From a virus: a DNA stretch of 64,000 nt. This document shows positions 31,947 through 37,787 of this stretch, piece by piece; positions within the stretch are counted from its first letter, which is position 1; each line of letters begins with the position of its first letter. The notes under the pieces were generated by a model, which saw only the letters and a list, made by a program, of their open reading frames with translations, was not told the DNA's origin and did not search any database. Made by a program: the position numbers and the translations under genes. The stretch spans positions 32,001 through 96,000 of IMG/VR virus record IMGVR_UViG_3300020122_000089. One strand, given 5' to 3'.

Positions 31947-34900
31947 TTACGCGAATGCTACGGCCGGTCCTGGCAGGTTTGTAATGTCGGAATTACTAAT
32001 GAGCCAGTGGCAGCCGAAGCGGGTAGCCCCGCCTTGTGTTAGCTTATGGTTCGATTTTCCATAAGAGCAGACTATCGCATCGCCTATTTTAGGCGCCTCT
32101 TCGTTTAGTCGTTCACGCTGATTATCTTGCGCCCTGTTTGGGTTCTCACCATTCAAGTCTATTAGAAGAGGTTTTCGCATATCATTATCTCTAACAATAT
32201 GGCCCCATCGGTGGAGGTCGTACTTACAGCCAAGGAACCCTATCCACTGATCGTAATAAGTCCCCCCGCTGGTGTACTGCCTGACCTGAAGCGTATCACG
32301 CGCATACGCCCCGAACTTCATTCATCTGTAATCTCCGGTTTTCACCGGAGTGTCGGACTATATTATCGGCTGTAAACATTACAGTCGCCGGGCGCTCTAG
32401 CTGGTAAATTAAAGGGACTAAACCCTTCCAGTAGTCTCTACACCTTCCGAGGGTGTACCCTCGACTTGGCTCGGTATTACCATACTATTTATTTCGTTTA
32501 GGCTTCACCGAATTCACCCGGTTAATTTCCCCTAGCATCACTGCTAGGTGAGCCAATTGTTAGTTTAGCTCGTACACATTGATTTCCGCCGGATTCACAC
32601 CGTACGTCCTGTCCGGGTCAATCGCGACATGGGTTTCCCAGGTAATGCCTTCTCCAAATTTCACGTCAGTGAACGTTTTGTTACTTCCCTTTCGGGAGGG
32701 TATATCATTTCTGTATACCTCTGTATGTTTCCATACAGCCCAGACTATCTCATATTCTCACTTGACAATGGCGCCTGTTTCATGTTATAATGTTTGGCAT
32801 TATGCCACAAAAATTCGGACGCTTAACTGTTCTGGGTAGGTCTTACAACAATCCATCTAAATTTCAATTCGCCAGATGGACCTGTTTATGCGATTGCGGA
32901 AACATCGTAGAGCCACTTGCAATTCATGTGCGATCTGGAAACACCCAATCCTGCGGATGCTTGCAGCGCGAAGCTGCGAGCAGACAGGGTAAGGCGAATG
33001 CTACGCATGGACTGTCGGGTACGCCTGAGGCCTACATCTACTATGCAATGCTTCAAAGGTGTTTTAACCCGGAGCATCCTAGCTATCAAAACTATGGCGG
33101 CCGTGGTATTACGGTATGTGAAAGATGGATTGGTGCTGAAGGATTGGCCAACTTTCTCGCCGATCTCGGGCCGCGCCCTAGTTCTGATTTGACACTCGAA
33201 CGCAAGAATAACGATGGAAACTACGATCCCGATAATTGTAAATGGGATACACGCGATAATCAGAATCGCAATTATCGTCGCAACCGATTTCTTACCTTTA
33301 ATGAAAAGACGCAGTGTATCGCCGATTGGGCCAGCGAAACAGGTCTCTCTCATGATACAATTAGCTATCGGTTGGCTCATGGATGGTCCGTCGAAAAGAC
33401 TCTAACTACACCTACCAAAAACAGTCTCAAGTAAGAACCGGGGCGTTATTAGGCTCTTATTGGATTGACTCCTCAAGCCTTAGTCGTTGCACCTGCCCGC
33501 CTACTTTTACGTCATTCGGCGAGATTGGCTCAGGATTTCCATGTCTCAAATTAACGAGATTTAGGATTCCCTGAATTAACCCCGTTTGCTTACAGATGTT
33601 ACCACCTGTAGGGACTTCTTTACAGAAATCCATTCTTAGCGATCCACCGCCCCCGTCAAAACGTTGCAAATTATATCCGTTCGTTGCTGTTATCCGGCCT
33701 ACGCCGAAACTGGTCATTTCTGCCAGTTTCTTGCGGTTATTTTTCCCGCAAGACCAGAACATTGCATCATCCTTATAGGATGTCGCCTCATTTGTTCGTT
33801 CACGCTGATTTCTTCCGGAAGAAACCTTGCGCCTCGTTGGCATTTCAGCCTCCGGGTCGATTACAGGCGATTTGCATCCCCGTATCACTACAGGACGGTC
33901 CAGGATTCCAGACATGTAGGCAGCTTTTTGGGTCGGGGAGGAAAGGATCAAAGTGTTACCTGGGTTGTCGGTCCGATACCTGAGGCTAAAGTGCACCTCT
34001 ACGAGCAATGCTACCTGCAATCTCTGTTGAGATGCATTTAGAACAATGCTCTTTAGGTATGGACGGTTGGATCTGAGTTGACCTTGGATTTCCCCCTTAT
34101 GTGTTAGCTTACGATTTTTCTTTTCGTAAGAACAGACTATCGCATCATCCTGACGTGCATACAGGACGCCTTCTCGTTTAGTCGTTCACGGTAGATTCTT
34201 CCGGAAGAATTATCCTTCCGCCCTATCAGCATTGCAGCTTTTAAGTCGATCAGAGAAGGTTTTCTATTCATCGTCACCGATGAATGCACCCGAGATTGAG
34301 TGTCATTGTTTACAAGATCGGTCACAATCTGTTACCTCTTCCTTGTGGAAGCGGGCGAGTCGTTTCCGCTCACCTCTGCATGTTACCATGCAGTTCAGAC
34401 TATATCTTTCTGAGTTTTCTTGATAAGCATTCTTAGCGCCTCCGTATCCGGAAAACCCTTCTTGATTAGGTAATGAATCGCCGCCGCTTTTACGTTCAAT
34501 GTTTCAGCCCAAGCGGTGATACATTGCGTAACGTCATCGAGTGTTATCATGTGATTACGCCGCGTATTACGCATCTGCTCTTTCTTGGTTGCCCACTTCA
34601 CATTCCCTGGTTCGTAATTGCCGTTGTTGTCAATGCGCTCAAGAGAATGTTCTGGTGATGGCCTTTCACCTACATCGGCGATCCAGTTTTCAAAGCCGTG
34701 CTCGCCAATCCACCTATCGGCAACCTTTATGCCACGTCCACCGTAATTTGGATAAGAAATCCCCGATTTTCTACGGCAGCGTGTAAGCATGGCGCAGTAC
34801 AATTCATACTCCACCGTATGCGAACGTCCATGCGTTCGGTTACCTGCCGCGGCGGCTTCCCGCTGTTTCTGTCCTTTATTGCGCTCTATTAATTCCTCTG

Positions 34901-37652
34901 TGCGTAAACAGCCGCAAGATTTAGTGACGCGATCATAGAGGCGCCTGGGCCGTGCAAGGATTTCGTTACCGCAATCACACTTACAAACATATCGAGTACG
35001 TACGTACCGTCCGATGGCAACCTGAACCCTCCGTATGACTGTCAGGCGGCCTACCCTGGGCGGAATTGGAAGCGCTGGATACATGCTTACTCAAACCTCA
35101 GACCGGGCATTGGCACGGGGTTATTAGTTTAGCCTCTTCACCCGTTAGTCGTTGAACGTTCCTGCCTACTGCTAAGCTATTCGGCAGGCTTCGCTGCTGA
35201 TTGTCCTTTGAAAGGAGTTCCCAGCAATTAACCCGGTTTATCCTGGGCTGTTGATTCAACCCATGTGGAGCCTTTAGCGCCGACCCCTCATAAGTGAGGT
35301 AATCATTCGCCGTAGTCCCCGTTGGCACTGTGTCGCACGTGATGACGCTCGTTGAGCGGTTGTTACCACCTGGGTCAACAACCACTCCGGTTGTAGGAGC
35401 GCCACGCGCTACGTTTGTAGTACCGTTTACGAAGTGAATACGTGCTCCGTCTTTTACTTTGAAGGAGCCGAACGTGCCGCCGTCTGCTACGGTTACGGCG
35501 CAGGTTACTGTACCGTTAGCACCTGTAGTAGCACTCTTGACTACCGCTATTGCACCGTTCTTAGAACCTGCAATTTGGAAGTCCAAAGTCTTCTTGGAGG
35601 CTTCGGTTTGGAGGAGGTAGAGGTCGCTGATTTTGTCAATCAGTGCATCGCCTCCGATGTTGTCGAACACGTCCCCCGAAATAAGGAACGCGGTTGCGTA
35701 TCTTGCTGGAAAAATCCGCATGTCATTACGGTCCTCCAACGGTTCAATTTCCGTTGGCCCGGGCCATCGCATCGTCTTGAACAGACGCCTCTCCGTTTGG
35801 TCTCTCACGCTACTAGATTCTTCCGGAAGAATTAGTTTGCGCCCCGTTCCCGTTTCAGGGTCCGAGTCTATTAGGGGTGGTTTACATAATCCACGTCGCC
35901 GTAGATTGAGTCCAATGTTTGAACTGCGGATTATCGGCAACTGGCATTGCTCCGCCTTCAGTGAAGTCGGTCTTGTTACTAGCTCTTTTTGTAAAGAGCC
36001 GGACGGGTCATTTCTGCCCATCTCTGCATTTTTCAATGCAGCCCGGACTATATCATAAACTTTACCTTGATTTTCCTCAAGAAATGTGCTATAATGACGC
36101 ACATGTATAAAGCGAAAAGCCTTGTCGGCCAAAGATTCGGACGTCTCATCGTTGTTGCGTTCTCGCATAGAAACGACAAGAAGAGGTCGAACCATTGGCT
36201 CTGTCAATGTGATTGTGGTGGGACGGCTACGCCATCCTCTTACGCCTTGAATTCTGGTCATACCCAATCCTGCGGATGTTATCACGCAGATTGCGCACGT
36301 GCTCAAGGTCATAAAAGTCGCAAACATGGAATGTCTAGGACGGCTGAATACTACGCTTGGAATTCCATGAAGGGTCGCGTTCTTTTTTCTCATCATCCTG
36401 GATATCCGGATTATGGCGGTCGAGGTATCACTATCTGCGACCGCTGGCTTGATCCGGAGCATGGGTTTGAGAATTTTTTGGAGGATATGGGGCCACGGCC
36501 TCATGATCAACTCTCTGTAGAACGCATGAATAACCACGGTAATTACGAGCCAGGAAATTGCAAGTGGGGAACGGATACTGAACAGGCTCGAAATAAGCGC
36601 AGTAATCATCCTCTGACTTTTAACAACAAAACCCAGCCTATGTCCGCCTGGGCGGAGGAAACTGGATTGCCATATCACATTATCAGCCATCGTATTCGTG
36701 CTGGCTGGAGTGTCGAACGGGCGCTGACTGAACCTATCAATCAATCGTATTCCCGTCGAAAAAGGTAAAGCCCTGGGGCGCTGTTTGGCGTTACTAAGAT
36801 TAGCTCTTTCGGCCATAGTCTCTGGACCTTCCTACCTACTTTTATGCTATTCGGTAGGCTTGGCTGCTGATTACCATATCTCGCGGTTGAGATTTAGGCT
36901 TCCAGCAATTCACCCCATTCATGTTAGATGTCACCATCTAACAGCCCATTGTGCATAGGAGTCGGATGCCGGCGGGCGGTCGTAGAAAGGAATTCTGTAA
37001 CCCCGTTGATTGACCTGTATGGCCTTCCCTTTATGGAAGCGGTTGTACAATTTTTGTTGCGTTCCTTAGAACGGATGGATATTTTCATTCCACCTCTTAC
37101 GGTTCAGATTTCCGCAAGATCGGACTGTTGCATAACCTAACAAATCAGGCCCCTCTTCGCTCAGTCTCTCACGGTAAAGATTTTTCTCTTTTTCCGCCTC
37201 GTTACCATGTTGCAGGTTTCGAGTCAATAAGAAGAGGTTTTCATCTATCGTTTTCACGGTAAATGCCCCGTATTTTGATGCCCAGGGTTTGGCTCTCTTC
37301 GAACTGTTTTTCAATCTCGGGATTGACAGCAGTCCTCACTACGGCTTCAAATTGGCTAAAAACAAGCTCCCGGTTTCTGGCGATTTTTCTTTTTCGCCAG
37401 CCCAGACTGTCGCATCACCCTTTTGGGCGCCTTCTCGCTCAGTCGTTTACGCCGCTCGGATTCATACCGCTCGTATAACGTTGGTCTCGTTAATTCGGAT
37501 TCAACAATCCGTCCTAACTGTTTCCAAAGTTTATCTGCCAATACTTCATCCTGCTTGCGCATTGTTCCCGTTTCAGGATTCAACTCAATCAGAGAAGGTT
37601 GTTTTCCAAAGGAGGCTGTATCGCTACAGGGCTGGCCGAGCTTTTCAGCCAT
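31947..37652 (-). CDS. Major capsid protein, 11 exons: 37652-37647, 37369-37284, 37048-36957, 35967-35922, 35728-35259, 34324-34299, 34095-33910, 33681-33628, 32673-32567, 32322-32215, 32031-31947 (421 aa)
   Basis: Exons total 1266 nt and read without a stop: MAELVFSQFEAVVRTAVNPEIEKQFEESQTLYNRF..GYRIPFYDRPPASDSYFTEGGAMP..KAPHGLTDLVNNDTGEIQG..SPTQKAAYMSNGYNLQRF..GFLGCKYDLGATRFGCHWLISN..AFA*. Lies downstream of scaffold and portal; RIP..EG and GL..LV motifs are HK97-fold-like. Confidence 0.85.
32032..32214 (-). mobile_element. Group I intron 10 (183 nt)
   Basis: P1 CCU/GGG; P3 CCUCUUC/GAAGAGG; AACGACUA / GAUAGUC; ends CACAAGG. Confidence 0.87.
32323..32566 (-). mobile_element. Group I intron 9 (IA-like, 244 nt, no ORF)
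   Basis: P1 GAGCU|AA..UUGGCUC; P3 CCGGGUG/CGCCCGG; AGAGACUA / AUAUAGUCC; ends CAGAUG. Confidence 0.9.
32674..33627 (-). mobile_element. Group I intron 8 (IA-like, 954 nt) with antisense HNH ORF in P8
   Basis: P1 GGAU|UUCU..AGAAGUCC; AAUUCAGGGAA..AAUCCUGAG; CAACGACUA / GAUAGUCU; ends AACAAAACG. Confidence 0.9.
32802..33434 (+). CDS. Intron-encoded HNH-type homing endonuclease (antisense to intron 8)
   Basis: CLCDCG..SCGC..YGGRGI..LERKNNDGNYDPDNCKW..QNRN; promoter TTGACA-18-TATAAT (32762-32791). Confidence 0.85.
   Translation: MPQKFGRLTVLGRSYNNPSKFQFARWTCLCDCGNIVEPLAIHVRSGNTQSCGCLQREAASRQGKANATHGLSGTPEAYIYYAMLQRCFNPEHPSYQNYGGRGITVCERWIGAEGLANFLADLGPRPSSDLTLERKNNDGNYDPDNCKWDTRDNQNRNYRRNRFLTFNEKTQCIADWASETGLSHDTISYRLAHGWSVEKTLTTPTKNSLK
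33682..33909 (-). mobile_element. Group I intron 7 (228 nt)
   Basis: P1 GUCU/GGAC; P3 UCGCCU/AGGCGA; compensated P7 GAACA/UGUUC; ends AGCAACG. Confidence 0.85.
34096..34298 (-). mobile_element. Group I intron 6 (203 nt)
   Basis: P1 CACU/GGUG; P3 CCUUCUC/GAGAAGG; AACGACUA / GAUAGUC; ends CAUAAG. Confidence 0.87.
34325..35258 (-). mobile_element. Group I intron 5 (IA-like, 934 nt) with sense HNH ORF in P8
   Basis: P1 UGGGU|UG..CAGCCCA; AAUUGCUGGGAA..AAUCAGCAG; CAACGACUA / AUAUAGUCU; ends AACAGAUUG. Confidence 0.9.
34395..35084 (-). CDS. Intron-encoded HNH-type homing endonuclease (sense, intron 5)
   Basis: CKCDCG..SCGC..YGGRGI..SLERIDNNGNYEPGNVKW..QMRN; the C-terminal codons overlap the P7 3' strand. 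Confidence 0.85.
   Translation of the reverse strand: MYPALPIPPRVGRLTVIRRVQVAIGRYVRTRYVCKCDCGNEILARPRRLYDRVTKSCGCLRTEELIERNKGQKQREAAAAGNRTHGRSHTVEYELYCAMLTRCRRKSGISYPNYGGRGIKVADRWIGEHGFENWIADVGERPSPEHSLERIDNNGNYEPGNVKWATKKEQMRNTRRNHMITLDDVTQCITAWAETLNVKAAAIHYLIKKGFPDTEALRMLIKKTQKDIV
35729..35921 (-). mobile_element. Group I intron 4 (193 nt, imperfect P3/P7)
   Basis: P1 AGUU|CAA..UUGGACU; P10 CAUUG/UAAUG; P7 GACCA/UGGCC with one mismatch; ends GACCG. Confidence 0.8.
35968..36956 (-). mobile_element. Group I intron 3 (IA-like, 989 nt) with antisense HNH ORF in P8
   Basis: AAUUGCUGGAA..AAUCAGCAG, CAGAGACUA / AUAUAGUCC, P3 GGGGUG/CGCCCC, extra helix between P7 and P3, ends AAGACCG. Confidence 0.9.
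36103..36768 (+). CDS. Intron-encoded HNH-type homing endonuclease (antisense to intron 3)
   Basis: CQCDCG..SCGC..HG..YGGRGI..DMGPRP..SVER..GNYEPGNCKW..QARN; promoter TTGATT-17-TATAAT (36067-36095), ATG 7 nt later. Confidence 0.85.
   Translation: MYKAKSLVGQRFGRLIVVAFSHRNDKKRSNHWLCQCDCGGTATPSSYALNSGHTQSCGCYHADCARAQGHKSRKHGMSRTAEYYAWNSMKGRVLFSHHPGYPDYGGRGITICDRWLDPEHGFENFLEDMGPRPHDQLSVERMNNHGNYEPGNCKWGTDTEQARNKRSNHPLTFNNKTQPMSAWAEETGLPYHIISHRIRAGWSVERALTEPINQSYSRRKR
37049..37283 (-). mobile_element. Group I intron 2 (235 nt; boundaries ambiguous by 1 nt)
   Basis: P1 CCCU/GGGG; P3 CCUCUUC/GAAGAGG; P7 GAGACUG/CAGUCC; end GCAACAAAAAUU(G). Confidence 0.82.
37370..37646 (-). mobile_element. Group I intron 1 (277 nt, no ORF), after codon 2
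   Basis: P1 UGGCU|GA..UCGGCCA with U-G; P10 AAGCUC/GAGCUU; P3 CCUUCUC/GAGAAGG; P7 GACUG/CAGUC; ends in G. Confidence 0.88.
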
Positions 37653-37787
37653 ACCGTAATCCCCCTTTCTTTCCTAATCCTTGCCTACGCTTTTCTTCCG
37701 GAAGAACCGGAATACTCGGCGCGTTACTCATGCTCTTGATTACGGTGACGATTCCGTGGTACGTCAAACATTTCTTTTTGTTTCCGC

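Follow-up and report, generated by a model that had tools for sequence, protein, structure and literature searches.

A compact group I intron after codon 2 of a likely phage capsid gene may impose splicing before translation

Introduction

The folding of a group I ribozyme within a bacterial or phage gene is in known conflict with translation, in that ribosomes trailing the polymerase can unfold it. Translation that enters a group I intron is held to disturb folding of the intron, and early in-frame stop codons are the usual remedy (PMC3984707). In the T4 genes td, nrdB and nrdD, splicing and translation of one RNA affect each other (PMC3984707), and the introns lie deep within the genes, where translation of the upstream exon is ended by an early in-frame stop (PMC8565351, PMC3984707). 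Here we describe intron 1, hereafter E1, of a gene that is likely to encode a major capsid protein. It lies in a window of 64,000 nucleotides, comprising bases 32001-96000 of the 104,058-bp viral record IMGVR_UViG_3300020122_000089, which has direct terminal repeats; the coordinates of E1 and of the capsid gene are given as window positions, on the minus strand. Like the T4 introns, E1 appears to be a self-splicing group I intron in a phage protein gene; unlike them, it is placed 6 nt into the open reading frame (ORF), has no in-frame stop, draws the AUG into its P1 helix, belongs to a compact subtype that the Rfam group I model RF00028 misses, and is predicted to mask the Shine-Dalgarno sequence (SD) of the gene on the unspliced RNA. 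It stands as near to the translation start as an intron within an ORF can be while still keeping a U before the splice site.

In the tandem of a c-di-GMP-II riboswitch and a group I ribozyme from Clostridioides difficile, splicing governs the presence of a usable ribosome site and start codon (PMC3984707, PMC8565351). A preliminary description of the present locus, in which it was proposed that capsid translation may be gated by splicing, was correct in citing this element as a precedent, since splicing there does reposition the ribosome-binding site (PMC3984707, PMC8565351). The C. difficile element lies in the 5' untranslated region (UTR) and has a ligand aptamer and alternative 5' splice sites, whereas E1 lies inside the ORF after codon 2, has a single splice site that fits the homologs, and matches no aptamer family; any gating by E1 would, unlike that of the C. 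difficile element, be constitutive. The layout of E1 is the natural counterpart of SIBR, an engineered T4 td intron placed directly after an ATG, which renders protein output dependent on splicing (PMC8565351). SIBR depends on a theophylline aptamer and on a TAA that occupies intron positions +1 to +3; E1 lacks both, and its predicted effect is instead closure of the ribosome site.

In crAss-like (Zeta/Delta) phages and in Jug phages, major capsid genes have been reported to be split by several group I introns, of which many are only about 200 nt long; the passages of these reports that were searched mention neither an intron at the translation start nor a link to the ribosome site (PMC7886860, PMC12880540). 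The present capsid gene, by comparison, contains ten introns. A phrase search of the literature for a natural group I intron located directly after a start codon returned engineered cases only. To our knowledge, no natural group I intron has been described that masks the ribosome-binding site of its host gene without a ligand. Multi-intron phage capsid genes, splicing-dependent ribosome sites and the engineered placement of an intron after an ATG are all already known; closure of the ribosome site by the intron would, if true, be a second and natural solution to the conflict between translation and folding, besides the early stop codon, and a new way for the folding of a ribozyme to survive coupled transcription and translation.

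Results and discussion

A capsid gene interrupted after its second codon

The interrupted gene runs from 37652 to 31947, and its pieces match uninterrupted proteins of 415-420 amino acids (P0006, P0009, P0012 and P0014) from related uncultured phages. Homolog P0006 matches phrog_14242, 'major head protein', with an E-value of 9.7e-8 across residues 7-368, and the protein-atlas neighbours are viral, with SU10_MCP present in 16% of the members of one cluster. The Pfam capsid families (Phage_capsid) fell under the cut-off; a profile search of the PDB gave no sequence match; and an AlphaFold2 model built from the five-sequence homolog alignment had a mean pLDDT of 36.8 and was unusable. Taken together, these comparisons indicate that the host gene is likely to be the major capsid gene. 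Four of its ten insertions were found by RF00028, with scores of 66-91 bits, and the remaining six constitute a second repeat family, here called E-type, that was missed by Rfam. A tblastn search of 50,697 phage records with exon 5 gave no match, and blastn with the gene found nothing beyond short matches to group I cores in unrelated phages.

The splice junction of E1 (Table 1) was set by protein homology, independently of any RNA pairing. The uninterrupted homologs P0006, P0009, P0012 and P0014 start MAELVFSQFEAVV (MAELVF), MSELVF, MAQLVF and MAEMVF, and the tblastn alignment to the window opens at ELVFSQFEAVV, exactly at 37369. In the relative L002 a near-identical leader, AAAGGAGAUUACGGCUAUG, runs directly into AGC GAG CTA GTT TTT AGC CAG TT. 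This leader and the N-termini of the homologs together therefore identify the ATG at 37652 as the homologous start, and they bear out, with the exon map, the earlier placement of the intron after codon 2 with an exon 1 of ATG GCT. An in-frame stop lies just upstream of this ATG, at 37676-37674, and exon 2 contains none of the codons ATG, GTG and TTG before its conserved residues. A true start inside exon 2, which the preliminary description had raised as the arrangement that would undo its proposal, is therefore excluded. The mature message can read AUG GCU GAG CUU... (MAELVF...) only after removal of E1. An intein-like, in-frame insertion was also considered for E1 and was rejected, 277 nt not being a multiple of three.

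On the unspliced RNA the same ATG opens the 98-residue junk ORF already noted in the preliminary description (37652-37356). This frame spans the entire intron and ends 14 nt into exon 2, its first in-frame stop lying at intron-relative nucleotide 289. It belongs to no Pfam family and no PHROG family, and a search of 5.8 billion proteins for homologs returned none but itself.

Evidence that E1 is a group I intron

A relaxed-threshold Rfam scan of E1 returned noise only, wider scans were likewise without an RF00028 match to it, and its sibling intron E4 reached 16.8 bits with that model. RF00028 being blind to E1, the evidence that it is an intron must be structural. The six E-type copies of the window were aligned with two copies from L002, and the alignment folds as P2, P3, P4, P5, P6, P8 and P9. 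With the P7 pseudoknot added, 94.9% of the cells hold standard pairs, as against 33-44% when the partners are slid by 1-3 columns; compensatory changes occur at 41 of the 47 pairs, and the observed values were reached by none of 500 shuffles. At the sequence level, P7 has an invariant G-C pair (8/8), a bulge of one nucleotide and, flanking them, a pair with covariation between A-U and G-C; this is the layout of the guanosine-binding site. All core pairs of E1 are standard except at two helix-end positions, and two other exceptions are an artefact of the alignment in P2.

A covariance model, R1, was trained on nine other E-type members with E1 left out. It finds E1 at 37377-37604, over the full length of the model, with 103.9 bits and an E-value of 1.6e-20, and additionally finds three members outside the training set. 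The E-type family comprises 13 members, distributed over the window and the relatives L002, L008 and L009. On these structural grounds we regard E1 as truly belonging to a compact subtype of group I introns that is specific to phages.

The pairing of UGGCU, including the UG of the AUG, with GGCCA in P1 was confirmed, with four Watson-Crick pairs and a U37647.G37637 wobble at the cleavage site; P1 can be extended by G37646-C37638 and, in the predicted fold, by GGU/GCC. The loop of P1 holds the P10 guide AAGCUC (37643-37638), which does pair perfectly, as had been claimed, with GAGCUU (37369-37364) of exon 2 through six Watson-Crick pairs directly beside P1. By our own arithmetic, the chance that a random site would match UGGYU|GRGYUU is about 2e-6; given that the junction was fixed by homology, the P1 and P10 pairings are therefore not due to chance. 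The overlap of P1 with the AUG arises because the intron follows codon 2, and alone says nothing about regulation. From the geometry, the footprint of a 30S subunit bound at this start codon would take in all of P1, so that initiation on the precursor and formation of P1 should be mutually exclusive.

Table 1. Features of the capsid gene start, of E1 and of introns that have the guide GGACU. Positions are those of the window unless L002 is named.
Feature	Position	Strand	Description	Basis
Shine-Dalgarno tract	37661..37668	-	AAAGGGGG; 8-nt spacer before ATG	Read from sequence
Coding exon 1	37647..37652	-	ATG (37652-37650) GCT (37649-37647), Met-Ala	Homolog N-termini; L002 leader and ATG; upstream stop
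Intron 1 (E1)	37370..37646	-	277 nt; compact E-type group I; terminal G37370	tblastn exon map; covariation; covariance model
Exon 2	37283..37369	-	ELVFSQFEAVVRTAVNPEIEKQFEESQTL; GAG CTT GTT TTT AGC...	tblastn, 83% identity to P0006 and P0014
98-residue ORF	37356..37652	-	On unspliced RNA; out of frame with exon 2	Read from sequence
P1 hairpin	37633..37651	-	Exon UGGCU (37651-37647), guide GGCCA (37637-37633)	Sequence; predicted pair probabilities 0.96-0.999
P2 hairpin	37616..37629	-	CUGUA-GCGA-UACAG; GNRA loop	Alignment; consensus fold; predicted fold
SD-complementary tract	37608..37615	-	CCUCCUUU; between P2 and P3	Alignment gaps in other members; fold; controls
P3	37430..37598	-	CCUUCUC (37598-37592) / GAGAAGG (37436-37430), around P4-P6	RNAalifold; pair counts
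P4	inside P3	-	GUUG (37584-81) / CAAU (37564-61), then P5	RNAalifold; pair counts
P6	inside P3	-	GCGC (37560-57) / GCGU (37452-49)	RNAalifold; pair counts
P6 extension	37556-37453	-	About 100 nt; in E1 alone among aligned copies	Insertion in alignment A2
P7 pseudoknot	37404..37446	-	A37446, bulged C37445, GACUG (37444-40) with CAGUC-U (37409-04)	Helix 6 pair counts
P8		-	CGCCC (37429-25) / GGGUG (37420-16); enclosed, with P3', by P7	Pair counts
P9 hairpin	37377..37400	-	CUGGCGA...UCGCCAG, then AAACCG and terminal G37370	RNAalifold; pair counts
Intron 4, guide GGACU	35921-35729			
L002 introns, guide GGACU	L002 7872-8108 and 8157-8400			

Predicted masking of the Shine-Dalgarno sequence

The tract CCUCCUUU, which is complementary to the SD, is an addition to what the preliminary description contained. 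The segment joining P2 and P3 (J2/3), in which it lies, is longer by 6-8 nt in E1 than in all seven other aligned members. The helix between this tract and the SD has predicted pair probabilities of 0.68-0.99 and completes a three-way junction whose other arms are P1 and P2. For the GGGGG core of the SD the mean probability of being unpaired, P(unpaired), is 0.004 in the precursor; it rises to 0.43 on deletion of the insert and to 0.76 once E1 has been removed. The observed degree of masking was reached by 1.3% of self-shuffles of J2/3 and by 0.7% of random J2/3 replacements. Among 30 other genes of the window, handled identically, P(unpaired) ranged from 0.047 to 0.73 and in none was it 0.01 or less, and the value for the GGGGG core in the L002 precursor, where the first intron follows codon 9, was 0.56. 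The junction fold is predicted to persist at 25-50 °C and with a leader of 148 nt; with a leader of 260 nt, the predictions show the junction for all transcript lengths as far as the end of the intron and past it.

A separate feature of the region is that AGCCA in exon 2 (37357-37353) is perfectly complementary to UGGCU in exon 1 (37651-37647). In the spliced mRNA their pairing is predicted to enclose the start codon in a small hairpin, and in long precursors it rivals P1.

An order of events may be proposed from these predictions, in which the leader, P1 and P2 would form the three-way junction first in the nascent RNA, and the SD would pair with the tract peculiar to E1, so that the ribosome site would be closed on the precursor. 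Such closure would keep ribosomes from making the 98-residue junk product and from running through a ribozyme that offers no stop codon, and the same helix could also help to keep hold of the short 5' exon after the first splicing step and before the second. Excision of E1 would then take away the masking tract and leave the ribosome site open. We consider it about evenly balanced whether E1 does self-splice and mask the SD in this manner, the result being a constitutive order of splicing first and translation second that makes an awkwardly placed selfish intron tolerable. An ordering of this kind probably reflects a compromise between an essential gene and the selfish intron within it. It seems rather doubtful that E1 has evolved a dedicated anti-Shine-Dalgarno insert, with the most abundantly needed late protein of the phage being initiated only on spliced RNA. 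Such an insert, if real, might also tie the output of capsid protein to the supply of GTP.

Intron position in related phages and intron spread

The capsid homologs of L001/L005 and L006 contain no intron. The E-type introns of L002 follow codons 9 and 25, the first intron of both L002 and L007 being located after codon 9; the E-type intron of L009 follows codon 17, and there the upstream frame stops two codons into the intron. Other E-type introns are present in L008. The core of E1 is about 70% identical to those of its nearest siblings (70.1% to L009 and 69.3% to E4). No other sequence in the collections scanned has an intron after codon 2. The position of E1 is thus peculiar to this gene, and this speaks against a control element of long standing that has been conserved.

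Intron 4 of the window and the two L002 introns have the guide GGACU in common and occupy CAGUU^C sites at Phe77, Phe9 and Phe25, respectively. This pattern is circumstantial evidence of the kind that guide-directed, reverse-splicing-like ectopic insertion predicts, and the E1 site AUGGCU^GAG fits the guide of E1 likewise. Support for reverse splicing has been regarded as circumstantial only (PMC3984707). The E-type introns would offer a clean example of the spread of introns, directed by guide sequence, within one gene family. In L009 (about 270-1090) and L008 (about 690-1480) the E-type introns contain ORFs some 800 nt long on the 3' side of P9, and the six E-type introns of the window are all without an ORF.

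Alternative explanations

The 98 open codons that lie behind a good SD might suggest that E1 is not an intron at all, that the read-through frame is a real small gene, and that the capsid protein starts elsewhere. To this we give almost no credence: an RNA model trained on other copies gives the region 104 bits, exon 2 offers no start codon, the homologs and the L002 leader put the start at the 37652 ATG, and the openness of the frame is owed mostly to the family consensus, which is open there in other copies too. As a gene the frame was rejected because no homolog was found, and it has no Pfam or PHROG family to set against this. Another reading would make E1 an allosteric ribozyme, whose P6 extension of about 100 nt, or whose leader, senses a metabolite or a protein and so times capsid synthesis. 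The presence of the large P6 extension in E1 alone, and the tandem of riboswitch and ribozyme in C. difficile (PMC3984707), both speak for it. Searches for riboswitch and aptamer families found none in 37330-37700 at E<=10 and none in the window at gathering scores, and a ligand switch is therefore unlikely. The P6 extension is predicted to fold into ordinary hairpins, an alternative splice site is not evident, and the element is not conserved elsewhere; we read the arrangement as something other than a signal-responsive switch, which would be very improbable. Of the earlier proposal of splicing-gated capsid translation, then, the competition between ribosome loading and P1 folding gains from the predicted masking of the SD and its predicted relief when E1 is removed. 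There is, however, no sign of regulation, given that the overlap of P1 with the AUG follows from the position of the intron, that this position is not conserved, that no ligand-sensing element was found, and that capsid synthesis depends already on nine other introns.

A purely selfish insertion without adaptation has to be taken seriously, its probability lying somewhat below even. A mobile E-type intron would have entered at a site, AUGGCU^GAG, that fits its guide; the pairing with the SD would be fortuitous or would stem from duplication of a P3 strand; ribosomes that load on some precursors would simply be wasted; and the overlap of P1 with the AUG would be mere geometry. The scatter of E-type introns over different codons in L002 and L009, with none in L001 and L006, is in keeping with such an origin, as is the common guide of three members at three like sites, which points to guide-directed spread. 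It is less readily reconciled with the J2/3 insert, which E1 alone has and which lies precisely over the SD, with an SD that is less accessible in the precursor than in any of the 30 control genes or in about 99% of shuffles, or with a junction that is predicted throughout transcription of the intron.

Several further results weigh against the order of splicing first and translation second, and some of them favour selfish insertion. The capsid gene has nine other introns, which already make capsid synthesis dependent on splicing, and introns 7 and 10 are likewise without in-frame stops, E1 not being unique in this respect. When the folded RNA combines the 260-nt leader with about 30 nt of exon 2, the fold that pairs UGGCU of exon 1 with AGCCA of exon 2 is favoured by 2.2 kcal/mol, a gap that is within the error of the model, and the probability of the junction drops in that long context to 0.02; the fold there is thus ambiguous. 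When RNAduplex was used to compare pairing of the SD region with that of 1000 dinucleotide-shuffled whole introns, E1 gave -13.2 kcal/mol against a mean of -13.9 kcal/mol, which is not significant. The support for masking consists of thermodynamic predictions, and the pairing was spotted before the tests were designed. The CCUCCUUU tract looks like a decayed second copy of the P3 strand, which is rich in pyrimidines, and an anti-SD-like tract could therefore have arisen without selection. RF00028, at its gathering threshold of 50 bits, has no match in the 371 bases from 37330 to 37700, even at E<=10. Lastly, an intron after codon 2 was not found in a second genome in the viral, metagenome and genome contig collections scanned.

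Other introns of the capsid gene

For intron 2 (37283/37282 and 37048/37047) the sole junction that keeps the frame, ..ACC CUG | UAC AAC.., is irregular: cleavage after G37283 would place a G-C pair instead of U.G in P1 (CCCUG/CGGGG), and cleavage after the U would leave U, not G, as the last base of the intron. For intron 5 (Rfam match 35306-34376) the 5' end given by cmscan is about 45 nt too early; the homologs extend the exon to about 35258 (..APHGL), where there is a P1 pairing of the GGGU/GCCC-like kind. The three long introns that are positive in Rfam have an extra hairpin (GGGCAGAAAUGACCC-like) past the 3' end assigned by cmscan. Introns 7 (33909-33682, 228 nt) and 10 (32214-32032, 183 nt) are multiples of three and are open in the frame of the exons; left unspliced, they would give a capsid protein with insertions of 76 and 61 amino acids, respectively, and not a truncated product.

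Three related ORFs lie within long introns, at 35995-36768 (+), 32766-33434 (+) and 34395-35090 (-), two of them on the strand opposite to that of the intron. They match no Pfam family at E<=0.01 and have common motifs such as YGGRGI and NNxGNYEPGNxKW. In introns 4, 6 and 7 the P6 helix is capped by the palindrome TTCTTCCGGAAGAA (family D12; 35817-35831, 34195-34209 and 33809-33823), which occurs also in the capsid leader, at 37692-37706, about 40 nt upstream of the ATG.

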